Shown one piece after another: positions 1 through 10,606 of a stretch of DNA of 10,695 nucleotides. The DNA is from Dehalococcoidia bacterium (GTDB lineage: Bacteria; Chloroflexota; Dehalococcoidia; Dehalococcoidales; UBA1222). The first letter of the stretch is position 1; every line of letters begins with the position of its first letter. Both the position numbers and the translations under genes were made by a program. The stretch is taken from positions 1 to 10,695 of the forward strand of contig QZJY01000057.1 in NCBI GenBank assembly GCA_003597995.1, in the 5' to 3' direction. A model generated the notes under the pieces. It searched no databases and was not told where the DNA came from. It saw nothing but the letters and a program-made list of their open reading frames with translations.

Positions 1-449
1 GAGGCGGGGGCCTTGCCGCCCCGGGCCTGGATGCGGGCGAATGCCGTTTCCAGGGGCACACGCAACACGTAGTAGCAAGTTCTAAGCCCGCGACCCGCGG
101 CATATAGGTGGTATTGGCGGGTGTGGAGCATCACGCCCTCCCATGCGACCGCCCAATATCCCGCCTTTTTCGCCTGGATACAGGCATGTTCCAGGGCATT
201 AAGGATCTCAATCTTCGAGCCGATACGGTCCACACCCGGAATCTTAACACTCGGCGTGAGATAGTCGCCGATGAGCACAATGCCGAAATTCCTTACCGCC
301 GTGAGGGGTACCGTGTACCCTGCCACTACCGACTCACCCTGCTCGGCCACAGCACGGAGCACGGTCGACTTGCCCGCACCATTCGTTCCAAGAACAGTTA
401 GCAAGACCAGGGGCGATCCATCAAAGGCATTTACGCCGAAGGTAGTCAC
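1..449 (-). CDS. P-loop NTPase/kinase-like protein. The N-terminus is in the window and the C-terminus runs past position 1.
   Basis: Manual minus-strand translation gives (V/M)TTFGVNAFDGSPLVLLTVLGTNGAGKSTVLRAVAEQGESVVAGYTVPLTAVRNFGIVLIGDYLTPSVKIPGVDRIGSKIEILNALEHACIQAKKAGYWAVAWEGVMLHTRQYHLYAAGRGLRTCYYVLRVPLETAFARIQARGGKAPA..., open to position 1. It has a Walker A motif (GTNGAGKST) preceded by a hydrophobic strand, and a hydrophobic strand ending in Asp (GIVLIGD) that resembles Walker B. An in-frame TGA sits at 453-455, followed by GTG at 447-449. The gene is absent from the ORF track, presumably because it has no stop inside the window. Confidence 0.6.
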   Translation of the reverse strand, partial: MTTFGVNAFDGSPLVLLTVLGTNGAGKSTVLRAVAEQGESVVAGYTVPLTAVRNFGIVLIGDYLTPSVKIPGVDRIGSKIEILNALEHACIQAKKAGYWAVAWEGVMLHTRQYHLYAAGRGLRTCYYVLRVPLETAFARIQARGGKAPA

Positions 450-453
450 CCGA

Positions 454-651
454 TCACGTACGGCGCGTGTGGGCCTTGTGGATCTTCGTTGAGCGAGCCT
501 TGCCGCAGGTCGGGCAGATGCGAGTTTGGTAGAATGGCGTGGGGCGGCGCTCGCCGGTCGTAAGCTGATGTTCGCGCACCACGTTGTCGGCTTGAATGCG
601 CGCCACGAGACGGGCCATCTCACTGGGGGTGCGGGCGTACTTCCGCGCCAT
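454..651 (-). CDS. Small basic protein of about 65 aa with a CPTC Cys pair; function unknown.
   Basis: This is the track ORF 454..678. Its first M at 678 is actually a TTG codon. An in-frame ATG at 649-651 lies 1 nt after the upstream kinase stop (653-655), giving MARKYARTPSEMARLVARIQADNVVREHQLTTGERRPTPFYQTRICPTCGKARSTKIHKAHTRRT. Third-position GC is very high, about 80% by hand count, which supports coding. The protein is rich in Arg and Lys. Confidence 0.45.
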   Translation of the reverse strand: MARKYARTPSEMARLVARIQADNVVREHQLTTGERRPTPFYQTRICPTCGKARSTKIHKAHTRRT

Positions 652-652
652 G

Positions 653-1222
653 TCAGGAGGACCTAATAGCGCGGTCAATCCACGCGTGAATCACAGCGTG
701 CTCAGGATAGCCCGGGGTAATCCAGAATTCCGCAACCTCGTGCAACGGCGCTGCGGGGTGGTCCCGTTGGAACTTGGCGAACGCCCGGGTATACCGGGAG
801 GCAAAGAGTTGTTCCGCATTCCGGCTGCCGCTTTCCCAAAACTCCTTGCGGTACGCCTTACCCCGGCGCACACAGCGGGCTTCGATATGGCGTGCACCGA
901 CCTCTACCGTCTGGAGCATCAGCGCCGCGCGGAGCCCCCGGTACATGCCGAAGGTGGACTGATGCACGAGGCACCGGAAGACGGCACTGTAGATCCGTGT
1001 ACCCTCAATAAGAAGCACGCGGGCCCGCGGATCGGCCCACCGTGTCATCATGTTGCGAAAGGTCGTCACCAACGGCTTCTGAAGAAGGGTATCTTCATCC
1101 GCCGTAATAACCCATTCGGGCTTGATCAGCCCTGCCTGGACCAGTCGTTCGCCGGCCTGGCGGAGCACCGTAGTCTTGCCGGCAGCGTTGCCGCCGGCAA
1201 GCAGGATGGCGCTGTATTGCAC
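653..1222 (-). CDS. P-loop kinase-like protein of 189 aa. It could be a (d)NMP kinase or a modified-nucleotide or DNA kinase; its specificity is unknown.
   Basis: Walker A (AILLAGGNAAGKTTVLRQ) lies at the extreme N-terminus, followed by an acidic strand (VITADED). The size matches small nucleotide kinases. The start is GTG at 1220-1222, immediately after an in-frame stop. Order of motifs and spacing are similar to the truncated P-loop gene at 1..449, suggesting a paralog. Confidence 0.7.
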   Translation of the reverse strand: MQYSAILLAGGNAAGKTTVLRQAGERLVQAGLIKPEWVITADEDTLLQKPLVTTFRNMMTRWADPRARVLLIEGTRIYSAVFRCLVHQSTFGMYRGLRAALMLQTVEVGARHIEARCVRRGKAYRKEFWESGSRNAEQLFASRYTRAFAKFQRDHPAAPLHEVAEFWITPGYPEHAVIHAWIDRAIRSS

Positions 1223-1289
1223 CCCTAATTACGGCGAAGACCGCACGGCTTCAATCGCCTGCGTGCTTCCATGCCGCCGTACCGGGTCG

Positions 1290-1466
1290 TCATGGCTGAG
1301 CGTGCGTGCCGGTGCGGAGGTTGACCTGTCGGAGAATAGTGATGACTTCGTCCAGGCTATGTGCGACGAAATTCAGCGACGACTCGTACATACCCAACGT
1401 AACGGTGTATCCATTCTCCGCCGGGTAAACCGTGAGACTCGTCGCGTCGTAGGTCGTACCTGCCAC
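1290..1466 (-). CDS. Possible unannotated small ORF of 58 aa, hypothetical.
   Basis: Manual translation from GTG at 1464-1466, 1 nt after the flotillin TAG stop, to TGA at 1290-1292 gives VAGTTYDATSLTVYPAENGYTVTLGMYESSLNFVAHSLDEVITILRQVNLRTGTHAQP. Third-position GC is about 70% by hand count. It falls below the 60-aa cutoff of the ORF track. Confidence 0.25.
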   Translation of the reverse strand: MAGTTYDATSLTVYPAENGYTVTLGMYESSLNFVAHSLDEVITILRQVNLRTGTHAQP

Positions 1467-1467
1467 G

Positions 1468-3000
1468 CTAGACCCCCTTATCCTCCACAGCGTTCAGATC
1501 GGACACCCCTGCCTTGGCCAACAGCGGGCTGATGTCGATACCCATCGCCTTGCACCGTTCAACGAGCGCGAAGAGGGCTTGGGGCCCAATACCCACGTAC
1601 CGGTCCAAGGCGCTACCGTGCCCGTTGCTGCTGCCGGAATCCATGACGATGATCTTATCCGCCTCAGCCAACGGCGCCGTCGCCGCGGCCATGACCCCGC
1701 TGAATTCCTTGATCGCGGCCGGCACCAGCGTTTGGGCAGCCTCGAGGATCTGGAGGAGCCGGCCGGCTTCATTCAGGGCCTTGTATGCTTCGGCCTTCTT
1801 GAGCGTGCCCTCAGCTTCCGCGAGGAGTTTGGCACGGATGCCGTCGGCTTCGGCCAGCAACTCGGCCCGCTTTGCCGCGGCCCGCCCTTCGCCTTCCGCG
1901 GCCAGGGCTTTACGCTGTGCTTCGGCCTCGATTTCTATCGCCCGCGCCCGGCCTTCCGCCGCGACCTCGGCCGAGCGACGCTGTGCTTCGGCCGGCCTGA
2001 TTACTTCTGCCACGAGTTCCTGCTCGCGACGAGCAGCCGCAGCCTCTGCCACTTCGGTTGCCTTGAGTGTGCGGACGAGTTCGACCTCTTGCTCCTTCTC
2101 CACGACCGCCTTCCGCGCTTCGGCCGTTGCCAACGGACCAGCCTGCTCGGCCCGGGCGCTTTCGGCGTTGGTTTCTGCCCTGTAACGGGCGACGCGTACG
2201 TCCTTTTCTTTCTCCGCCTCTTTGATCAGCGCAATGTTTTCCTGCTCCTTTACGGCACCTTCTTTTTCGGCGGTCGTGGCCTGGATAGTCGCTTCCTTCT
2301 GCGCGTCAGCGGCACCGATTTCGGCGTCCCGCTTGACCTCCGCGGTCCGCTTCAGCCCCAACGCGGCCAAATAGCCTTGCGAGTCGGACAGTTCCTTGAC
2401 CGTAAGGATATCGATCTTGAGCCCCAGGCGGGCCAGGTCGCTCTGTGACTCGTTAATCATACGCTGCTGGAACGCCGCCCGATCGCTGTTGATCTCCTCA
2501 ATGGACAGCGTGCCCAGCATGGAGCGCAGGTGGCCTTCCAGGGCCTCGTATGCCATCTGCCGGATCTCTTCTTGGCTTTTACCGATGAGCCGTTCGACGG
2601 CGTTGATAAGCAGCGTGTCCTCGCTGCCCACCTTGATGTTGGCAACGGCCTTGATCGACAGCGGCACGCCTTCCCGTGTGATAGCTTCTTGGACGGCTAG
2701 ATTCGGGATGGTGATGACCCGTAGGTCTAGCTCGTCCTTACGCTCGAGAAACGGGATAACGAGGGTCGCCCCACCGCGCACGAGGCGGTAGCCGACCGTT
2801 ACGGTCTGCTCCTCCCCGTTCTCATTGCGTGTCACGATCCGGTGCTGCCGCCCCGAGACAACGGCCACAAGATGTGGTGGCACTTTGATGTAGTTGGCCC
2901 GCAGCATCCGAATGATGATGGCGAGCATGAGCACGACAAGTCCAACGATGGCTAGCGTCGTCAACCATGCGGCTATCTGCTGTCCGATATCAAGACCCAC
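1468..3000 (-). CDS. floT: Flotillin of the FloT/YuaG type (SPFH/band-7 domain protein).
   Basis: The 510-aa protein has an N-terminal TM helix (LTTLAIVGLVVLMLAIIIRML) and an SPFH core containing RLVRGGATLVIPFLE, LIGKSQEEIRQMAYEALEGHLRSMLGTLSIEEI and LGLKIDILTVKELSDSQGYLAALGLKRTAEVKRDAEI. By recall these align closely with B. subtilis FloT. A long Ala/Glu/Arg-rich coiled-coil repeat region follows, then a C-terminal tail. The start is GTG at 2998-3000, overlapping the nfeD stop by 11 nt. Confidence 0.85.
   Translation of the reverse strand: MGLDIGQQIAAWLTTLAIVGLVVLMLAIIIRMLRANYIKVPPHLVAVVSGRQHRIVTRNENGEEQTVTVGYRLVRGGATLVIPFLERKDELDLRVITIPNLAVQEAITREGVPLSIKAVANIKVGSEDTLLINAVERLIGKSQEEIRQMAYEALEGHLRSMLGTLSIEEINSDRAAFQQRMINESQSDLARLGLKIDILTVKELSDSQGYLAALGLKRTAEVKRDAEIGAADAQKEATIQATTAEKEGAVKEQENIALIKEAEKEKDVRVARYRAETNAESARAEQAGPLATAEARKAVVEKEQEVELVRTLKATEVAEAAAARREQELVAEVIRPAEAQRRSAEVAAEGRARAIEIEAEAQRKALAAEGEGRAAAKRAELLAEADGIRAKLLAEAEGTLKKAEAYKALNEAGRLLQILEAAQTLVPAAIKEFSGVMAAATAPLAEADKIIVMDSGSSNGHGSALDRYVGIGPQALFALVERCKAMGIDISPLLAKAGVSDLNAVEDKGV
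1780..2350 (+). repeat. Low-complexity GC-rich coding repeats, the flotillin EA-rich coiled-coil region.
   Basis: gcttcggcc-like motifs recur around 1787, 1841, 1917, 1985, 2117 and 2160. On the minus strand they encode AEAE, AEGR and KRAE repeats. The same region produces long spurious plus-strand ORFs (1514..2185 and 1579..2448). Confidence 0.5.
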
Positions 3001-3508
3001 GGTGATTCTCCTTTACGCGGATGGAGGGTTTGACTAGCACCTGGTCTCCTATGAATGTTGTCAAAATTACACGGGTGCCGACGGGGTAGGCCGGCGCGTA
3101 CGGCTCCCCGGCCCGTGCGACGAATGTCTGTTGGTTCCCGCCGACATTGACGACAACTTCGCCGGCTGTTAGCCCCGGCCCCACTTGCACAGTCACGACG
3201 CCGGTGCGGCCGAAGACGTCTGCGGTTTGCACGTGACTCGTCGACTGTTGACGGCTGATCACACGGAGCATCCACACCATCAGCGCACCAAAGCACAGTC
3301 CCGCGAGTACCCCGTACCCGGCGGCGCCAACGATACCGAAGCCGGCGTAGCGAGCTAGCTGCCCGAACCCGCCAAACGCCGCGAGAAAGGCTGCAATTAC
3401 TTTCATGTTGGCTAACTGCGGCCCATCGTGGTCCAAATCCCCGTCGAGATCAAACAGGAACGCGATGAGCAGGCCGGCTAAGCCGACGGCGAGCAGTATG
3501 ACGAACAT
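2990..3508 (-). CDS. nfeD: NfeD-like membrane protein (YuaF/YqiJ type), the usual partner of flotillin.
   Basis: From the internal ATG (aa 51 of track ORF 2990..3658) the protein reads MFVILLAVGLAGLLIAFLFDLDGD..., with hydrophobic TM segments (VIAAFLAAFGGFGQL, GIVGAAGYGVLAGLCFGALMVWML). A C-terminal OB-like beta domain follows (GRTGVVTVQVGPGLTAGEVVVNVGGNQQTFVARAGEPYAPAYPVGTRVILTTFIGDQVLVKP). The ATG lies 5 nt downstream of the upstream gene's stop (3513). The GTG start at 3658 listed in the track would overlap the upstream gene by 146 nt and was disfavoured. Confidence 0.75.
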   Translation of the reverse strand: MFVILLAVGLAGLLIAFLFDLDGDLDHDGPQLANMKVIAAFLAAFGGFGQLARYAGFGIVGAAGYGVLAGLCFGALMVWMLRVISRQQSTSHVQTADVFGRTGVVTVQVGPGLTAGEVVVNVGGNQQTFVARAGEPYAPAYPVGTRVILTTFIGDQVLVKPSIRVKENHRGS

Positions 3509-3512
3509 GCCT

Positions 3513-4457
3513 TCACCCCTTGTGTACCCAATACTTGGGATTGCGGAACCGCTGCGGAATCGTGTCCCAGAGGCGTAGATCCGTGCTGGCTTTGGCCGGG
3601 TCGTAGGTGCGCTTTGCGCGCCCGAACTCCTTGAACCGCACGTATTTCTGGTATTCACATAAGGCTTGTTCGAGATTCTCCAAGGTTAGCGGGGGCCCAA
3701 GAAGCGTGGCGCCGGCTGCTGCTAGCTGGTCGTACTGGCTGTCGCGTAATTCCATCAGTGCCGGCTGCACCTGCGGCAGGCGTATGCGGCGCTCAAGCAA
3801 CAGGTCAAGCCCCCGAATCGCTCCGGGTCCACAGAAGGCCCACTCGTCGAGCCACGAGCTTGGGAGAATGTCGACTTCGGGGTAACAGCAGTCAATCATG
3901 ATCTCAAAGGCGTTAAACCCGGCCCAGCCGGGCACTTGCATGAGCACGCGATGCGCCTGGACGGGGTTGGTGGCATCGGCCAGTTCGTCAAGGACGCGGC
4001 TAACGTGTTCCGCGAGCCATGTCAGATTCGTGATAATCGTGCGTAGCTTGCCCCCGCCGCCCCCGCCGCCGTGACCAGTGATCATATACGCCCCGGTGAA
4101 GATCTTCACGCCTTGGGCCCGGAGCGCCTCCAACCGGTGGAACATCCGTTTGGAGCTCCAGGACTCAGGCGTCAGGTAGCCGCCGAGAGCGTCGTAGGTA
4201 GCCGGCCACCCAAAGGAGCGGAAGGCCGCGACGTTAAAGAGCTGGTTTTCTGGCTTGCCTTGCTCGGGCAGACGGCGAAGAAGTTCGCGCGTCCCCCGAT
4301 CTAGTTCACGGTAAATGTTCGTGAATGCTACGCTGCGCAACACCTGATCCTCGGACCACGGCGGCGGTTCCAGTCGAATGATCCGGCGCACGAACACCGC
4401 ATGTCGCTCAGCGACAAACCGCCAAAACTGTGGAACATGCTCAGGGTGCCAGTCCAT
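3513..4457 (-). CDS. Hypothetical 314-aa protein with a poly-Gly loop (GHGGGGGGGK). Candidate partner enzyme of the adjacent TS-like gene; function unknown.
   Basis: The ORF has an ATG start at 4455-4457, 7 nt after the TS-like gene's TAG stop, and its stop lies 5 nt before the nfeD start. Codon usage and third-position GC match the neighbouring genes. I could assign no family from the sequence alone. The Gly-rich loop does not fit the Walker A pattern GxxxxGK[ST]. Confidence 0.75.
   Translation of the reverse strand: MDWHPEHVPQFWRFVAERHAVFVRRIIRLEPPPWSEDQVLRSVAFTNIYRELDRGTRELLRRLPEQGKPENQLFNVAAFRSFGWPATYDALGGYLTPESWSSKRMFHRLEALRAQGVKIFTGAYMITGHGGGGGGGKLRTIITNLTWLAEHVSRVLDELADATNPVQAHRVLMQVPGWAGFNAFEIMIDCCYPEVDILPSSWLDEWAFCGPGAIRGLDLLLERRIRLPQVQPALMELRDSQYDQLAAAGATLLGPPLTLENLEQALCEYQKYVRFKEFGRAKRTYDPAKASTDLRLWDTIPQRFRNPKYWVHKG
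4051..4068 (+). repeat. Perfect tandem 9-mer (cccccgccg) x2 inside the 314-aa CDS, encoding the Gly7 run.
   Basis: Read directly from the sequence: cccccgccgcccccgccg at 4051-4068. Its reverse complement, ggc ggc ggg ggc ggc ggg ggc, encodes GGGGGGG. The repeat unit is a multiple of three. Confidence 0.8.
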
Positions 4458-4464
4458 GTCGTCC

Positions 4465-5637
4465 CTACGGGCCGTGATATTCAGGCAAGGAAGGCTGCAC
4501 AGCCCCGTCGTGTTTAATGTAGGCGAGTACGACGGCCGGATAATCCGGGAGATAAACGTGGCGCGTTACGTGCCGCCGCGCTGCCCACCGCCACAGGAAT
4601 TCCCATGCGGCCACGGCCCAATCCTGCGCAGCTACACAGTGGAGTTCGTCGACTGCCCGTTGGCATCGCTCAACGTTGTCGCGGGCACTTGTACCGTGTA
4701 AGTGGCCCCATGCCCGTAACATTCGCCGGACGCTCTCCCAATACGGACAATCGACCGGATCGTCGAGCGTTCGGGCCAACAGGGCCGCCCGTGCCAACGC
4801 CGGACCGGGGGCCATGCGGGTAAACGGCACGTGCCGGTACACGTCAAAGGACACGTGAGGATTCTCGACGAGTCGGCGTACGATGGGATCATCCTCGTAC
4901 ACGTGCAGGCTGGAGCTGAAGTGCGAATACTCGCCGACGTCCACCCCAAGCTCACAGGCCAACGCCTCCTGGATGGTCGTAAATTGCACGATGTTTGTAT
5001 ACGAAAGGCCCAGGACCAAATCGTTCGAGCGGTTGAAGGTAGCCGCCCAGAGCTTGCCATCCCGCAGTTGGTACGTGCAGGCTATGTTGCAGGGCATATC
5101 ACGGGTCTCTACCTGCGGGTTATCGAGTTCCGGATCCCTCAGCACGGTGGCAGCGCGGCGGCTGCCGGCGTCCAATCGCAACTGCGCGAGGACGTCTTTA
5201 AGCTGGTCTGCGGTGCCCTGAAACCCCGCACGACGCAGGCGCTTACCGTACGCGCCATGGAAGTCCGGCCCGCCGTCCAAGTACTGGCGGAGTTGTGAGT
5301 TGTACCGGCAAATCCATTCGGCGTCACTCCGGCCGGCCAGGATCCACACGGGTTCCGCTAGCTGGAAAAAGGGGTTTGCCCGCCGGTACGGGATTGTAAG
5401 CACCCGCTGCCGGGGCTGCACCAGCATAGTCAGGGCGTGTAGCATTTCCCTGTGCGTGCGCCCCCGGGAGGTTACGGGGGTGCCATAGAGGCGCATTTGC
5501 TGTACGGCGTCTACAAACCACTCGTTCGCATGCCCGGCCAAGATCAGCCGTTCGGCCTGGTGCTCGCTGGAGGCGCCCCACTTTCCGGCAGCGGTTTCGT
5601 CAGCGTTGGGCGGTGAGCCGTTTCCGTTGCCTGTCAC
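4465..5637 (-). CDS. Thymidylate-synthase-family enzyme, divergent. It may be a canonical thymidylate synthase or a pyrimidine hydroxymethylase; uracil specificity is predicted.
   Basis: The 390-aa protein aligns, by recall, block for block with E. coli ThyA. HGAYGKRLRRAG matches GPVYGKQWRAW. DQLKDVLAQLRLDAGSRRAATVLRDPELD...MPCNIACTYQLRDGKLWAATFNRSNDLVLGLSYTNIVQFTTIQEALACELGVDVGEYSHFSSSLHVYEDD matches [26 protein letters not shown]...[69 protein letters not shown]. The catalytic Cys and the Asn equivalent to E. coli N177 (dUMP specificity) are present. It differs from ThyA in three ways: PCN replaces PCH, there are about 90 extra C-terminal residues, and there is a low-complexity N-terminal extension of about 25 aa. 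The start is GTG at 5635-5637, overlapping the RuvC gene's stop by 38 nt; an alternative TTG start lies about 31 codons downstream. Confidence 0.85.
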   Translation of the reverse strand: MTGNGNGSPPNADETAAGKWGASSEHQAERLILAGHANEWFVDAVQQMRLYGTPVTSRGRTHREMLHALTMLVQPRQRVLTIPYRRANPFFQLAEPVWILAGRSDAEWICRYNSQLRQYLDGGPDFHGAYGKRLRRAGFQGTADQLKDVLAQLRLDAGSRRAATVLRDPELDNPQVETRDMPCNIACTYQLRDGKLWAATFNRSNDLVLGLSYTNIVQFTTIQEALACELGVDVGEYSHFSSSLHVYEDDPIVRRLVENPHVSFDVYRHVPFTRMAPGPALARAALLARTLDDPVDCPYWESVRRMLRAWGHLHGTSARDNVERCQRAVDELHCVAAQDWAVAAWEFLWRWAARRHVTRHVYLPDYPAVVLAYIKHDGAVQPSLPEYHGP

Positions 5638-6271
5638 GGCGCTTCTCCTTTGGAGCCGCTTGCTGTTCCCACGTATAGGCCAGCTTCAGCAACACTTCGC
5701 GTTGCGGTTTCGTGAGGCGGTCGCCTGTACTGCTGCCCGTCAGGACGGTGTGGAAGTCGTGCCCGATCCGGGCGAGGACGAACGCGTCGGCGAGGTTGTG
5801 GTCTTTGTACTCGCGCCCCCACCGTTTGTAAACCTGAAGCAGCACTTCGTCTTTTTGCTGGGCACCGCAATACTTCTTAACGTGCGCCACATTCACGGGA
5901 AGAAAATGCAGCGTTGGCCAGCGCGACTCCCAGAGCACAACCTGGTACACCGCCTGGATGGCCGCCGCTTCACTGGCGGTGTGCGCGTTCGACAGCCAAA
6001 TCTCTGACTCCAGTGCCACCACAACGTGCGCCGCGGAGTCGCGCGCAGACAAGACGATCCGGGCAAGCCGCTCGCGCTGTTCGTACAGGCGCAGGGGGCG
6101 CGGCCCGTCACCCGGGGCGGTCTCGAGCGCGTACTCCTGAACAACCCGTCCGTCCGTTAGGACACAGACGCCTGTGTGCGCAAGTGAGGGGTCAACCCCG
6201 ACGACGGTGACGGCTGGGTAGCTTGGGTCGCCGCTGCTTCCGGGCGGGCTGTTGACCGGCTGCCTGACCAT
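5600..6271 (-). CDS. RuvC-like Holliday-junction resolvase (phage-type).
   Basis: The 223-aa protein carries an N-terminal RuvC-fold signature (VTVVGVDPSLAHTGVCVL) with an Asp, then a conserved Glu (VVALESEIW), then AAIQAVYQVVLWE and a C-terminal acidic motif (DHNLADAFVLARIG). A basic tail (KEKRRDRQRKR) follows. The start is ATG at 6269-6271. Confidence 0.8.
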   Translation of the reverse strand: MVRQPVNSPPGSSGDPSYPAVTVVGVDPSLAHTGVCVLTDGRVVQEYALETAPGDGPRPLRLYEQRERLARIVLSARDSAAHVVVALESEIWLSNAHTASEAAAIQAVYQVVLWESRWPTLHFLPVNVAHVKKYCGAQQKDEVLLQVYKRWGREYKDHNLADAFVLARIGHDFHTVLTGSSTGDRLTKPQREVLLKLAYTWEQQAAPKEKRRDRQRKRLTAQR

Positions 6272-6458
6272 AAGTCACCTCAAGCACTTCGACATCCACA
6301 CGTCGATACGGGATGCCGGGCGTGTTATTGCCGCATTTGTAGCAGAAGAACGCGGTGTCCTGCATCGTGTGCACGAGGCCCACCTTGCAACGTGTGCACA
6401 GATAAATCGTGTCCGGCACGGACATCATGCGATGTTCGGCGTAGTGCGGCATTGTCAT
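6192..6458 (-). CDS. Small Zn-ribbon protein of 88 aa from the internal ATG; function unknown.
   Basis: This is track ORF 6192..6569. The ATG at 6456-6458 forms an ATGA overlap with the Dcd-like gene's TGA stop (6455-6457). The protein reads MTMPHYAEHRMMSVPDTIYLCTRCKVGLVHTMQDTAFFCYKCGNN..., with a CxxC...CxxC motif and a basic C-terminal tail. Its last 80 nt overlap the RuvC N-terminus in another frame. In that overlap the third-position GC is lower for this frame than for the RuvC frame. Confidence 0.5.
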   Translation of the reverse strand: MTMPHYAEHRMMSVPDTIYLCTRCKVGLVHTMQDTAFFCYKCGNNTPGIPYRRVDVEVLEVTYGQAAGQQPARKQRRPKLPSRHRRRG

Positions 6459-6967
6459 GGGCGTGCTAGCTGCGCCGTTGCTGCCCCTTGGTAACGGCCG
6501 TTGTAGGGGTTGCGGGCAAGGCTGGAGAGCCGGTGGACGACCACCTGTGCGAACCGCAGCCCAGGCCAAAGGGGCAGTTGATGATAGCGCGTCTCATTCT
6601 TAATTTCCATCGTCCCAATGCCGTCCCACCCCGGGTCAAACCAAAAGGCCACGGTATGATTCCAGCCTTCACGGGCCCGGCTGGACTTCATCTTCAACTC
6701 CAGCGCATACCCGTTCGGTACGTGGAGCCACTCCCATGTTGACGTAAGGAGGAATGCCCCGGGGTCAACAAGAAACGGTTTCTCCTCACTGTACCCCGCA
6801 AGCGAGTGCGGCTCCCATCCGGGGACACGCCCGGGCTTTTCTACCCAAGCGTCAGTACCAATGCGGATGTCAACCGATGCGGGATTTACAAGCTTCCGGT
6901 CTTCGTCGGGCGCCTTGGGAAACAGCACAGGAAACAGGTCGTCCAGCTCCCGATCACTTAGAGGCAT
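6455..6967 (-). CDS. dcd: dCTP-deaminase-family protein (dUTPase superfamily), possibly a bifunctional dCTP deaminase/dUTPase.
   Basis: The 170-aa protein reads MPLSDRELDDLFP...VNPASVDIRIGTD, which compares with E. coli Dcd MRLCDRDIEAW...VDVRLGN. It also has KMKSSRAREGW (Ser/Arg motif), FDPGWDGIGTMEIKNE (the Dcd-type DPGWxG motif plus the catalytic Glu) and GLRFAQVV. The ATG at 6965-6967 overlaps the Rad50-like gene's TAA stop by 10 nt. Confidence 0.8.
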   Translation of the reverse strand: MPLSDRELDDLFPVLFPKAPDEDRKLVNPASVDIRIGTDAWVEKPGRVPGWEPHSLAGYSEEKPFLVDPGAFLLTSTWEWLHVPNGYALELKMKSSRAREGWNHTVAFWFDPGWDGIGTMEIKNETRYHQLPLWPGLRFAQVVVHRLSSLARNPYNGRYQGAATAQLARP

Positions 6968-8703
6968 TCGACCTCCGCTTCGCCTTGGGAACGTGTCACA
7001 CGCACCACACGGGCACCGGGAAACAGCGCCTTCTGGTCCTGATTGTGTGTAATCACAAATACGGTTACACCGTTGTGGACTTCTTCATGGAGCATGTCAA
7101 TGATAGCGCGCATCCCCGTAGGATCAATACCGCTGAGGCATTCGTCTAAGACTAACAGGTTCACCGGTTCAGGCATGCGCCACCGGGCTAGGGCCCGCAG
7201 CGCCCACGCGATGATGAGATTTACTCGTTCCTTTTCGCCCCGGCTCAGCCCCTCGTACGTCGGGGCACTGGCCCCGCTGATGCGAATGAGGTCTTCATTG
7301 CGGCTGGTGCGAAGCGAGTTAAACTCAACGTGAATTGTGCCGCCAGTCAGCCGGCGACTGACGGCGGCGGCGGTGCGGTTGAGCACCGGCAATGCTTGTG
7401 CAAAGAGATAGGCTTGCAGGCCGTCGCGGCCAAACTCCTTAACCCAAAACGTCGCCCGTTCCAACAGCGTCGTCTTGAGGCTCAGTTCAGTCTTTGCTTC
7501 CCGCAACGCGGCGTCGGCGCGCTCCACCTGTTCGGCGGCGAGTCGGCGATGCGCGGCCTGTTCCTCCTGCTGTCGATGAATCTCCCGCATTTGGTGTTCA
7601 AGGGCATCTTGCCCCTGCGCCGCGGTTTCCAACCGGCGGTAGTCCTGCTCGGCGGCCTGTAGCGCGGCCTGTAGCTTTGCGGCCTGCTCGGTCGTGTGTT
7701 GGGCCTGCTCAGCGGCCTCCGCGCGATCGGCATGCAAGCCCGCCAGCCGACGTTCACTAGCTTTCCGCTGCTTTTTCAACTCCGCAACATTGTCGAACGG
7801 TCGCTTGCAGGTAGGGCAAGCAGTTGAGAAGTCCTGCGCGGCCAGGGAGCGTATTTCCCCGTCCAGACGGTGAACGGTTGCGAGACGTGTATTCGCCTCT
7901 TGCTGGGCCTTGTCGTAGGCGGCCTTACGCACCCGACAAGAGAGTTCGCTCTTAGTCAAGAGGCTCTGCGCGTGTTTCGCTTGCCGTAGTCGTTCCTCAA
8001 GCCGCTCTAGGGCGGCTTCGTAATCGTACGTAGCGGCAGCGCGCACGTGCGCAAGGAAACGCTCCGCCTCGACATGCACCGCCTCCCGTTCCCGTACGAC
8101 CGCCGCGGCGGTGGCCCGCTCCTTCTCGAGGGACGCGGCGTGTTTTGCGGCCAGGGCTGCCGCCTCATTCAATTCGCCTAGCTTGAGCACGGCCTCCAGC
8201 ACGGCCATCTGCCCGGAGAAGCCGGCCTGTGCAAGCGTCGATTCGCCGCTGAGCACGACCGCGGCGCAAAGGGTGGCATAATCGAGACCAAACAGGGCCT
8301 CCGTGTCACGGGCGCGCACGGCCGCATCCCGTGACAGCGGCACCCCCTGCTCTTCAAGTGTAGAAATTACAAGACTCGGGTGACCCTTGGCCGTGCGGGC
8401 GCGACGCAGGCGGACAACGGCCCCCGAATCAAGTTGAATAAGCTCCTCGACGTCGGCGCCGCGTAGGGGGTGGGCGGCGTCGTCGGTAACTGCTCGATTG
8501 CCGTACCGGACCATCTTACCGAAGAGGGCCCACAGAAGCGTTTCGACGATAACGAGCGACTTTCCAGCGCCGTTACTATCCGCGGCGCCGGGGGTGTCGA
8601 GGTTGACGCCCTCGACGAGAACAATTCCGGGGCGGTTAAGTGGAAGGGTGACCGGGCGGCGGATCCGGTTGAAGCTGTGGATCCGATGTTCGAGGAACTT
8701 CAC
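6958..8703 (-). CDS. Rad50/SbcC-like ATPase of the SMC-type ABC family, with a zinc hook.
   Basis: The 581-aa protein has an SbcC-like N-terminus (MKFLEHRIHSFNRIRRPVTLPL...DSNGAGKS, Walker A). A long Ala/Glu/Arg-rich coiled coil follows, with a central CPTC hook (DFSTACPTCKRPFDN). The C-terminus carries the signature motif (LSRGEKERV), Walker B (LLVLDECLSGID) and an H-loop (VFVITHN). The start is GTG at 8701-8703. Confidence 0.85.
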   Translation of the reverse strand: MKFLEHRIHSFNRIRRPVTLPLNRPGIVLVEGVNLDTPGAADSNGAGKSLVIVETLLWALFGKMVRYGNRAVTDDAAHPLRGADVEELIQLDSGAVVRLRRARTAKGHPSLVISTLEEQGVPLSRDAAVRARDTEALFGLDYATLCAAVVLSGESTLAQAGFSGQMAVLEAVLKLGELNEAAALAAKHAASLEKERATAAAVVREREAVHVEAERFLAHVRAAATYDYEAALERLEERLRQAKHAQSLLTKSELSCRVRKAAYDKAQQEANTRLATVHRLDGEIRSLAAQDFSTACPTCKRPFDNVAELKKQRKASERRLAGLHADRAEAAEQAQHTTEQAAKLQAALQAAEQDYRRLETAAQGQDALEHQMREIHRQQEEQAAHRRLAAEQVERADAALREAKTELSLKTTLLERATFWVKEFGRDGLQAYLFAQALPVLNRTAAAVSRRLTGGTIHVEFNSLRTSRNEDLIRISGASAPTYEGLSRGEKERVNLIIAWALRALARWRMPEPVNLLVLDECLSGIDPTGMRAIIDMLHEEVHNGVTVFVITHNQDQKALFPGARVVRVTRSQGEAEVECL

Positions 8704-9299: not shown

Positions 9300-9575
9300 T
9301 TACGACGTGGATGCCTGCTCTCCCTGCGCTGTGACAGTCATTGCTCCCCGAAGCGCGAGGTAGGAGATGACGCGCCCCAACGTCCACTCCGGACCCAGCT
9401 GTTCGGCCACGGTGCGCAGGTCGGCCAAGACCGCGACCGGCAGGTCCACCCGCACCGCAGGGTCCAGGAAATCAGCTAGCTCTCCCGGCTCGACATCCAG
9501 ATCCTTCAAGACCGTTTTACAGAAGTGCGGCCAATCTTTTGGAAACTGTGTTGCGACGAGTTTCAGCTTGCCCAT
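9300..9575 (-). CDS. Hypothetical 91-aa protein.
   Basis: This is track ORF 9300..9578, which begins with GTG. The second codon is an ATG at 9573-9575 that overlaps the Mre11-like gene's TGA stop (9575-9577) by 1 nt, a TGATG junction. The protein reads MGKLKLVATQFPKDWPHFCKTVLKDLDVEPGELADFLDPAVRVDLPVAVLADLRTVAEQLGPEW.... I recognised no family. Confidence 0.5.
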   Translation of the reverse strand: MGKLKLVATQFPKDWPHFCKTVLKDLDVEPGELADFLDPAVRVDLPVAVLADLRTVAEQLGPEWTLGRVISYLALRGAMTVTAQGEQASTS

Positions 9576-10606
9576 CACCTGCTGGCCTGCCGGTAAAGGT
9601 ACATGCCCAATTCCACCATCTGCGCCTGCTCATCTGCACTGAGTTCAGGGCATTTTGCCCGAACGCGCTGCCGGAGCAACTCTTCCGAGATCGCCTGCCC
9701 CCCGGCCAACGCTGTCATAATCGATTTCTCTACCTCTGGCACAATCTCTGCGGGCAGCGGCACGGCGTCCAGCCAGCCCAAGCCTTTCGCTGCGTGCTGT
9801 GCTTCTTCCAACTTCTCCTTCGGCACGGCCACGATGCGCAAGTAACCGCCTTCTGGGGGCGCGACGGGAAGCTTCGGCCACTTCGATGTGACGAATACGG
9901 GGGCGGTAAAGGTTACCCGTTCGTACCCGTGGTCGTCAATCAGCACCCCCCCGCGGGAACCGACGTCCCCGAAGTCGAAGTGCATCGGGGCCCCCACGTA
10001 AACCACGCGATAGTTCCGCTGCACAGAGGGCTTGTGCACGTGGTTAAAGAACACCCGGGGGAAGCGGCCCAGCTCACCCAACTTCAGGGGCGCCTCCAGC
10101 CAGTAGTCGGATTCCAGCTCTACCCCTTCGGCGGCGTAGTGACTAAAGACCATGAATTCACTCTCGGCGGCGTCAAAGGCTTTGACCATCACTGCCGGAT
10201 CTGGGTGGAAGGGAATAAAGGTGGCCACGCCACCTAAAATGTCGATCTGTTCGGCCTGTTCGACGAGGGTCGTATTCGGTAGGTGTTTGAGTGGATACAG
10301 CGCGTGCTCTACACCATCCTCGAAATCGTGATTGCCCGGCACGATGATCGTTTCCACTACTCGTTCGGTTAACCGCTCCAGCGCCCGGTAAATGGCATTG
10401 TAGAGCCGGAAGCTAATAAAGTGCCGGCGGTGAAAGATGTCCCCACCCAACACGAGCGTTTCCACATCTCGTCCAACCAGTATGCGCTCCACCTGTCCCA
10501 GCACGTTGAGTAGGTCGTTGACCCGTGTGGGCAGACCATTCACATCTAGCCGGCTGTACGGCCAGTTCCAGTTCGCGTGCAGGTCCCCAATATTGAGGAT
10601 CTTCAA
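9575..10606 (-). CDS. Mre11/SbcD-like calcineurin-type phosphoesterase (DNA repair nuclease).
   Basis: The 343-aa protein has an N-terminus typical of SbcD (MKILNIGDLHANW, motif I GDxH), then GGDIFH (motifs II/III), GNHD (motif IV) and later His residues. The start is TTG at 10604-10606, overlapping the upstream gene's TGA stop (10603-10605). Confidence 0.85.
   Translation of the reverse strand: MKILNIGDLHANWNWPYSRLDVNGLPTRVNDLLNVLGQVERILVGRDVETLVLGGDIFHRRHFISFRLYNAIYRALERLTERVVETIIVPGNHDFEDGVEHALYPLKHLPNTTLVEQAEQIDILGGVATFIPFHPDPAVMVKAFDAAESEFMVFSHYAAEGVELESDYWLEAPLKLGELGRFPRVFFNHVHKPSVQRNYRVVYVGAPMHFDFGDVGSRGGVLIDDHGYERVTFTAPVFVTSKWPKLPVAPPEGGYLRIVAVPKEKLEEAQHAAKGLGWLDAVPLPAEIVPEVEKSIMTALAGGQAISEELLRQRVRAKCPELSADEQAQMVELGMYLYRQASR

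Follow-up and report, generated by a model that had tools for sequence, protein, structure and literature searches.

The question raised by this locus is why a flotillin gene and its nfeD partner should lie in the middle of a phage-type array of replication and nucleotide-metabolism genes. For two decades, SPFH/flotillin genes have turned up in phage genomes without being explained, and a paper of 2026 still described the reason for their presence as one that "remains unclear". The stretch analysed here (the window) is an entire contig of 10,695 bp, deposited as "MAG: Dehalococcoidia bacterium" (MAG, metagenome-assembled genome), in which every credible gene lies on the minus strand. The pair, an NfeD-like gene at nt 2990-3508 followed by a flotillin gene at nt 1468-3000, is real, tightly packed, and on one strand, as an initial annotation of this DNA had described it. 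Judged from its genes, the window appears to be a fragment of a tailed-phage genome or prophage carrying a replication, recombination, and thymidine-hypermodification module. Overall, the pair is on balance probably a host-derived nfeD-floT module that is carried by the phage and has a host-maintenance role during infection. Phage-encoded flotillin/SPFH proteins are already known; what is added here is a full module that recurs, and its location inside a thymidine-hypermodification cluster.

Proteins of the window were assigned to families with Pfam, PHROGs, and NCBIfam. The flotillin gene (minus strand, GTG start) encodes a 510-aa protein for which hydropathy predicts a membrane anchor at residues 12-30 (nt 2911-2967; Kyte-Doolittle 19-residue mean of 2.76), followed by an SPFH domain at residues 52-235 (nt 2296-2847; Pfam Band_7/SPFH, PF01145, E = 5.9e-22, 79 bits versus a cutoff of 23.6) and by a region assigned, from its EA content, as an Ala/Glu-rich coiled coil at residues 236-410 (nt 1771-2295; Ala + Glu 46%, 28 EA/AE dipeptides). 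The structures of human flotillin-1 and -2 matched residues 73-459 with E = 2e-50 and 1.5e-42, respectively, and the NCBI entry "MAG: flotillin family protein [Dehalococcoidia bacterium]" was 100% identical; exact look-up in assemblies returned no record of the protein. With these matches, the identity of the protein as a flotillin is secure at the sequence level. The Pfam Flot model was matched with E = 3e-4 and 21.3 bits, under its cutoff of 27, and the NCBIfam FloT model (NF058507) aligned full-length over residues 19-494 with 263.8 bits, the equivalog cutoff being 700; therefore, the protein is a flotillin-family protein and not a FloT equivalog. The anchor, SPFH domain, and EA-rich region named in the initial annotation were all recovered.

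The upstream gene (minus strand, ATG start) encodes a 172-aa short-form NfeD-like protein with about three predicted membrane helices, seen as hydropathy peaks and, in a low-confidence AlphaFold2 model, as helices at residues 2-20, 30-54, and 59-91 followed by strands; a predicted C-terminal beta-rich OB-type domain occupies about residues 98-164 (nt 3017-3217). The protein is 36-40% identical to the products of genes just upstream of the closest cellular flotillins, two of which match PF01957 weakly, under the Pfam gathering cutoff. A profile built from the window protein and three homologues collected 1693 representatives at E<=1e-3; PF01957 was matched by 52 of the 100 top-scoring aligned members, and a profile of those 100 matched the solved C-terminal domain of Bacillus subtilis YuaF (PDB 2K14), the partner of FloT, at 7.9e-11, as well as three further NfeD-type domains (2K5H, 3WWV, and 3CP0). 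Among orthologues in other contigs (see below), the NfeD_TM model matched fully in L051 and weakly in L032 and L049. A family hidden Markov model picked out a member as the immediate upstream neighbour of the flotillin gene, with the same orientation, in nearly all fetched loci that included upstream sequence. No ClpP-like protease domain was matched in the 172-aa protein with Pfam or NCBIfam, so it does not qualify as the long form (NfeD1a), and a tblastn search with it against phage records gave no match. Asp and His abound in the loop that joins membrane helices 1 and 2 (DLDGDLDHDG, residues 20-29, nt 3422-3451 of the window), as they do in the equivalent loop of L001, L004, and L007; cellular homologues have longer DHD/DHG repeats in this place, and the loop is a possible metal-binding site.

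The two genes overlap by 11 nt, and a Shine-Dalgarno-like AAGGAG motif, read from the sequence at nt 3008-3013 of the minus strand within the 3'-end of nfeD, stands 7 nt before the GTG of floT. The overlap suggests that the two genes are translationally coupled. The stop codon of the preceding gene, which encodes a protein of the HMUDK_hel family, lies 4 nt from the ATG of nfeD, and the floT stop is followed after 1 nt by orf58 (nt 1290-1466, minus strand, a putative gene of 58 aa) and, after a further 67 nt, by an open reading frame (ORF) for a P-loop protein. Of the gaps of 5 and 7 nt given by the initial annotation, the upstream one is therefore really 4 nt, and the 7-nt gap exists in another place, between a thymidylate-synthase-like gene and the HMUDK_hel gene. 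GC content, GC at third codon positions (GC3), and codon usage of nfeD-floT match those of the rest of the contig, so the pair is very probably neither a recent insert nor the product of a chimeric assembly. A search for flanking direct or inverted repeats as insertion scars found just short chance-like matches and internal repeats of the EA-rich region. Promoters and terminators were sought on the minus strand flanking nt 1290-3508 and none were detected, the counts being not above those of shuffled sequences; the scan used the sigma-70 consensus only and is weak evidence, but, as far as it goes, it speaks against the proposal that the pair is a moron in the strict sense, that is, with its own promoter and terminator.

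The embedding of the pair in a phage-type replication and nucleotide-metabolism array, also proposed by the initial annotation, was upheld: PHROG matches were obtained for SbcC, SbcD, RuvC, dCTP deaminase, and thymidylate synthase proteins, and in total eight neighbours of the pair had PHROG or phage-typical Pfam matches, in addition to a kinase for 5-hydroxymethyldeoxyuridine (5-hmdU) in DNA at the contig end. The gene next to nfeD (nt 3513-4457, minus strand) encodes a 314-aa 5-hmdU DNA kinase helical-domain protein, HMUDK_hel (PF18723, E = 5.2e-50; phrog_2396), homologues of which were found in 368 phage records, including M6-like Pseudomonas and ViI-like Salmonella phages, and in 179 IMG/VR stretches. 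Before it lies the gene for the 390-aa thymidylate-synthase-like protein (nt 4465-5637, minus strand; phrog_5131, E = 6.9e-72; PF00303, E = 4.7e-18), which is about 31% identical to proteins of M6-like phages, some of them annotated as deoxyuridylate hydroxymethyltransferase, and which is probably a dUMP hydroxymethylase. On the other side of the pair, translation of the contig end revealed an ORF (nt 1-449, minus strand) that was absent from the ORF list because the contig end cuts it, with loss of its 3'-end; its start is a GTG at nt 449 or a TTG at nt 404. It matched the P-loop 5-hmdU DNA kinase family PF18748 with 34.2 bits (cutoff 27) and was 43% identical to the kinase of a related contig (L010, see below), matches by which it is a true 5-hmdU DNA kinase. 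With this kinase at the contig end and HMUDK_hel on the other side, the pair is enclosed by a thymidine-hypermodification cluster. The pathway of such hypermodification is established for M6-like and ViI-like phages, and among its phage enzymes the 5-hmdU DNA kinase has been characterised (PMC8989533).

As in the clusters of M6, PaMx11, ViI, SP10, and PhiW-14, the window thus has a dUMP-hydroxymethylase-like gene, HMUDK_hel, and a P-loop 5-hmdU DNA kinase on one strand. Unlike in M6-type clusters, no amino-acid:DNA transferase (aGPT-Pplase/ADDT) or tailoring enzyme, such as a pyridoxal-phosphate (PLP) enzyme or a radical-S-adenosylmethionine (radical-SAM) enzyme, was visible among the ORFs of the window; the transferase and tailoring genes may lie beyond the contig end, or the phage may stop at 5-phosphomethyl-dU. 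The initial annotation had spoken of kinases downstream of the pair, and of these one gene stands, the cut-off 5-hmdU DNA kinase. The other, a 189-aa P-loop NTPase with a Walker A motif (nt 653-1222, minus strand), found no match in Pfam, PHROGs, NCBIfam, PADLOC, phage records, or PDB. As a second 5-hmdU DNA kinase it was rejected, its likeness being confined to Walker A and perhaps the following "hhhhEG" strand; it may represent a paralogous kinase that has diverged very far. A location within a thymidine-hypermodification cluster has not been reported for any flotillin gene of this kind.

The closest relatives of the array have it without the pair. Two metagenomic contigs, L010 and L011, are syntenic with the window, SbcD, SbcC, RuvC, the thymidylate-synthase-like protein, and HMUDK_hel sharing 42-48% protein identity, and orf92 36%. 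Neither has nfeD-floT at this locus, where other genes follow HMUDK_hel; in L010 these encode a PLP enzyme, an acetyltransferase, a radical-SAM enzyme, ADDT, a P-loop 5-hmdU DNA kinase, a DUF3310 protein, and a DnaG primase. When nt 1-4457 of the window are set beside nt 10001-18765 of L010, the genes found from HMUDK_hel to the kinase are nfeD, floT, orf58, the P-loop ORF, and orf74 in the window, and the transferase and tailoring genes in L010. By its gene content, the L010 array is an M6-like hypermodification cluster, which shares with M6-type clusters the PLP enzyme, the radical-SAM enzyme, the acetyltransferase, and ADDT (PMC8989533). In IMG/VR, none of 80 loci with HMUDK_hel (1.41 Mb in total) had a flotillin- or NfeD-family gene within 10 kb. 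The pair is therefore not a conserved part of hypermodification clusters, and the comparative context gave no evidence of a functional link between the pair and DNA modification; with no conserved link to the surrounding hypermodification genes, the practical consequence for the window is small. Scans of IMG/VR with HMUDK_hel and with the flotillin as single proteins, and with an alignment of phage-like flotillins, found nothing, and an exact 40-mer from the window was absent from that database.

The flotillin has about 20 relatives at 55-67% identity, followed by thousands of ordinary bacterial flotillins at about 45%, and in a neighbour-joining tree this close group was split from other bacterial flotillins with 100% bootstrap support. 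The cellular members of the group have housekeeping genes around them (NusB, RNase III, SMC, P-type ATPase, ribosomal proteins, PolA, and UvrB), and those with names come from Saccharibacteria and Azambacteria MAGs, that is, from bacteria of the candidate phyla radiation (CPR). The CPR nfeD-floT operons (L004, L007, L013, L032, L033, and L040) have the same flotillin group, NfeD family, and gene order as the window, but differ in their housekeeping neighbours and lower GC content. A Pro_CA_2 gene is conserved downstream of the flotillin gene in the cellular L004, L033, L007, and L032, and L004 and L033 also share an upstream VTT-domain gene and a P-type ATPase gene; none of these three neighbours has been taken up by the phage-like contigs. 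A cellular subclade with 91% bootstrap support excludes the window and all phage-like contig copies. The phage-borne flotillins were considered as a single viral clade, an arrangement not accepted since their monophyly had just 40% bootstrap support, and with this value one capture and several captures are both possible. The grouping hints at gene flow between phages and CPR bacteria.

Apart from the window, at least six phage-like contig lineages carry a flotillin of the group, each with nfeD directly upstream. They include L030, with an intein- and HNH-laden terminase large subunit gene and a TROVE/Ro60 gene; L001 (TROVE, SLT, RNA ligase, and Fic); L049 (SpoU, RNase H, and SLT); L050 (RtcB, SbcCD, and a phage metallopeptidase); L051; and L042 and L043, in which the neighbours of the pair have PHROG matches and comprise ThyX, a thymidylate-synthase-like gene of the same PHROG as that of the window, an exonuclease, a nucleotide kinase, and RNA ligase. 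DegT is likewise among the differing neighbours in the other carriers. With the window these carriers share just distant SbcD or thymidylate-synthase-like genes and almost nothing else, so they represent different phage lineages. Several phage lineages that are unrelated to one another have thus acquired the nfeD-floT module in its complete form, beyond a mere SPFH domain, and the sister contigs form a defined, testable candidate set for what a membrane scaffold does for a virus. Of 198 columns that were each >=90% conserved across 88 ordinary bacterial flotillins, the phage-borne copies kept 71-76% and the nearest cellular copies 71-78%; within one phage-like lineage (L043 versus L041), the ratio of nonsynonymous to synonymous substitution rates (dN/dS) was 0.07 for flotillin and 0.15 for NfeD, so that both genes are under purifying selection there. 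The conserved columns, the dN/dS values, and a partner gene that is always kept argue for a module whose two members function together, in much the same way as in cells.

Several further features of these carriers were observed. In L030, an ORF of 940 aa (nt 1-2823) combines a terminase-large-subunit match with LAGLIDADG and HNH endonuclease matches, which suggests that the terminase gene is interrupted by an intein. TROVE/Ro60-like genes, 55% identical to each other, lie 0.5-2.5 kb upstream of nfeD-floT in L001 (nt 5325-7001) and L030 (nt 6026-7867), and RNA-repair genes (RNA ligase in L001, RtcB in L050) may tend to accompany the module. In L042 (nt 15312-16514) and L043 (nt 17163-18365), a 400-aa fusion of an N-terminal P-loop domain (thymidylate-kinase-like PHROG) with a uracil-DNA-glycosylase-superfamily domain adjoins the thymidylate-synthase-like gene and ThyX; this region, close to a further nfeD-floT pair, may be one more cluster for DNA base modification. 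Two IMG/VR contigs with a GC content of 31-35%, L008 (424 kb) and L009 (194 kb), also have an nfeD-flotillin pair, the flotillin being 39% identical to that of the window; these contigs may be huge phages or misclassified cellular sequences.

The initial annotation had called a flotillin inside a phage-like operon unusual, and this is so in the sense of uncommon, not unprecedented: the window flotillin was matched by 10 of 50,697 phage records, several of them short and unannotated, and the pair is rare in phages. An annotated flotillin is present in the complete genomes of Vibrio phage KIT04 and phage csAssE-Sib; these two proteins share 25-29% identity with the window protein, and the other phage records no more than 37%. 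Like the window, csAssE-Sib has an NfeD-like transmembrane protein gene directly upstream of the flotillin gene (E = 6e-7), and its pair lies between DnaB helicase and exonuclease genes, i.e., among replication genes; the KIT04 flotillin, unlike that of the window, has no NfeD partner. SPFH genes are also listed, without functional study, in the T4-like phages 44RR, Aeh1, and RB43, in Vi01-like phages, and in GIB1 of Schitoviridae; by annotation, the T4-like and Vi01-like proteins are short lipoproteins, unlike the window flotillin. The best "phage" matches, PQ520226.1, OR847422.1, and OR849508.1, bear the names of Enterococcus or Listeria phages, are 1.5-3 kb long, and lack annotation; with about 36% identity to the window flotillin, they look like Firmicutes FloT and may be host sequence filed under phage names. 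The short unannotated records of Enterococcus phage IME_EF3 (2.5 kb) and Listeria phage LM 4-11-1 (3.1 kb) are suspected to be host DNA and were not used as evidence.

Outside phages, the pair most resembles the NfeD-flotillin operons of B. subtilis (YuaF, an NfeD2 protein, with YuaG, i.e., FloT) and Staphylococcus aureus (NfeD-FloA). In these, as in the window, nfeD comes first, on the same strand and tightly linked; the flotillin combines an anchor, an SPFH domain, and an EA-rich coiled coil; and the short NfeD consists of membrane helices and a C-terminal OB-type domain, which for the window protein is a prediction. Differences are that the window pair stands in a phage-type array instead of a chromosome, that the nearest cellular relatives of its flotillin are of CPR type (59-67% identity) and not from Firmicutes, and that the yuaI-like gene downstream in the B. 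subtilis operon is lacking. In S. aureus, FloA-NfeD stabilises unfolded membrane proteins under stress without ATP (PMC11222466). It is because of the analogy with YuaF-FloT and S. aureus NfeD-FloA that a host-maintenance role is favoured.

According to this explanation, this phage lineage would carry a two-gene, host-derived membrane module inserted between its HMUDK_hel and 5-hmdU DNA kinase genes; the pair is intact and its composition is adapted to the phage. As it is packed in the same co-directional string, its transcription probably accompanies that of the DNA-metabolism genes, early or midway in infection. In the infected cell, the flotillin would insert through its N-terminal anchor and assemble, by means of its SPFH and EA-rich coiled-coil parts, into an oligomeric scaffold or cage on the membrane; the OB-type domain at the C-terminus of the small NfeD would dock on it, as happens in the cellular pairs YuaF-FloT and NfeD-FloA. 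Such a complex would stabilise the organisation of the membrane, and its proteins, under stress. In this way the phage would add to the flotillin system of the host or take its place, and membrane fluidity, membrane-protein complexes, and energisation might be kept working while host gene expression is shut down. The role would then be an auxiliary, "host-maintenance" one and not a part of DNA modification.

Several observations weigh against this explanation. No structural or packaging gene is present on the 10.7-kb contig, which was binned into a Dehalococcoidia MAG; the check for terminase, capsid, and tail genes that had been suggested thus came out negative on a contig too short to hold them, its gene content being phage-specific all the same, and phage identity is accepted because of this gene content and the synteny. 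The flotillin scores under the FloT equivalog cutoff. The NfeD-like protein taken alone had no Pfam match, PF01957 included, even at E<=10, and its AlphaFold2 model, based on a 4-sequence alignment, is poor (mean pLDDT, the predicted local-distance score, 49.8). The named cellular relatives are CPR bacteria with a GC content of 45-52%, and the cellular nfeD-floT loci as a set mostly have 42-52%, versus 61% in the window, and the selection estimate comes from the L043/L041 lineage, not from the window. Moreover, the computed data do not discriminate among membrane maintenance, superinfection exclusion, and other membrane roles.

The main rival to host maintenance is competition or exclusion at the membrane. 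The pair would here be a membrane weapon that remodels the host membrane to exclude superinfecting phages or to blunt membrane-depolarising abortive-infection effectors or premature lysis, and would not serve to maintain normal host physiology, a reading that is possible, though on the unlikely side. The neighbourhood of the module varies among phage lineages, as is usual for accessory or competition genes, and the window pair is packed among DNA-metabolism genes, a class whose expression in phages usually falls in the early or middle part of infection; phage SPFH proteins are regarded as unexplained in the literature, which has speculated on roles in entry or adsorption (PMC13239085). Neither protein, however, matched the PADLOC defence models, which also gave no match for orf58, the P-loop ORF, HMUDK_hel, or orf178, and in both partners the cellular architecture is complete and the residues conserved in the family are retained, which fits an unchanged activity as well as a new one.

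Rather unlikely is a long-resident phage-borne lineage of NfeD-flotillin modules, which would build phage-directed SPFH cages in the host membrane with a virus-specific job instead of simply copying what the host protein does; its carriers would be phages of groundwater and soil that possibly infect CPR or Chloroflexota bacteria. If such cages exist, candidate jobs are anchoring or shielding replicating hypermodified DNA at the membrane, blocking superinfection, and neutralising membrane-targeting abortive infection.

The initial annotation had suggested that a flotillin scaffold organises phage replication or modification complexes at the membrane. The pair does sit between HMUDK_hel and the 5-hmdU DNA kinase, and it is found among nucleotide-metabolism and replication genes in L042/L043 and csAssE-Sib too. 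Nevertheless, none of the 82 other HMUDK_hel loci, namely L010, L011, and the 80 from IMG/VR, has the pair; the other carriers, sharing just distant SbcD or thymidylate-synthase-like genes, have different neighbours; and the hypermodification enzymes characterised so far are soluble in vitro (PMC8989533). A functional link of the pair to replication or to thymidine hypermodification finds no support in the comparative context and is very unlikely. A neutral passenger from the host, with no role in infection, is improbable to a similarly high degree: absence from the closest relatives does indicate that the pair is dispensable for the core lifestyle, but both reading frames are intact, the composition has been ameliorated to that of the contig, the partner gene is kept in every phage-like carrier examined, and dN/dS is 0.07-0.15 in one phage-like lineage.

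Most improbable of all is a non-viral contig or an assembly chimera of a cellular nfeD-floT operon with phage genes, for which the binning in a Dehalococcoidia MAG, the lack of capsid, terminase, tail, tRNA, or integrase genes on the contig, and its absence from IMG/VR (by the exact 40-mer) could be cited, against a composition and codon usage that are uniform across the junctions, the 4-nt and 1-nt gaps that join the pair to phage-type genes on both sides, HMUDK_hel upstream and the 5-hmdU DNA kinase downstream of it, and the presence of this pair in phage-like contigs that were obtained independently, from other samples. In the same vein, an ordinary chromosome segment with floT-nfeD conserved in syntenic relatives, which the initial annotation had named as the finding that would overturn it, was not what was seen, as the synteny of the relatives is without floT-nfeD. 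Host maintenance by a host-derived module stays the preferred explanation.

In the order of transcription, the genes of the window encode SbcD-like, orf92, orf178, SbcC-like, and dCTP-deaminase-like products, a small zinc-ribbon ORF, and RuvC-like and thymidylate-synthase-like proteins, followed by HMUDK_hel, the NfeD-like protein, flotillin, orf58, the P-loop ORF, orf74, and the left-end kinase. The SbcD/Mre11-like nuclease (nt 9575-10606, minus strand, 343 aa) matched phrog_100 (E = 4.3e-30) and PF00149 and was 45% identical to the L010 protein; the SbcC/Rad50-like ATPase (nt 6958-8703, minus strand, 581 aa) matched phrog_77 (E = 1.1e-49) and shared 42-48% identity with its counterparts in L010 and L011; the dCTP deaminase-like protein (nt 6455-6967, minus strand, 170 aa) matched PF22769 (E = 1.6e-18) and phrog_1663 (E = 2.1e-34); and the RuvC-like Holliday junction resolvase (nt 5600-6271, minus strand) matched phrog_159 (E = 4.6e-22), with 45% identity to the L010 and L011 proteins. 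Neither tRNA genes nor Rfam families were matched in a scan of the window, no integrase was found, and megablast of the whole window against phage records gave no match. No homologue of orf58 was found in the searches made with it; its GC3 resembles that of the neighbouring genes. The putative orf74 (nt 454-678, minus strand, 74 aa) contains Cys pairs. The longest ORFs overlap by 38-115 nt at four places, SbcC/orf178 (nt 8636-8703), orf125/dCTP deaminase (nt 6455-6569), RuvC/orf125 (nt 6192-6271), and thymidylate synthase/RuvC (nt 5600-5637); in this region of SbcC, orf125, RuvC, and thymidylate synthase calls, the real start codons are probably further downstream, and the RuvC-like gene, too, probably starts downstream of its ORF start.

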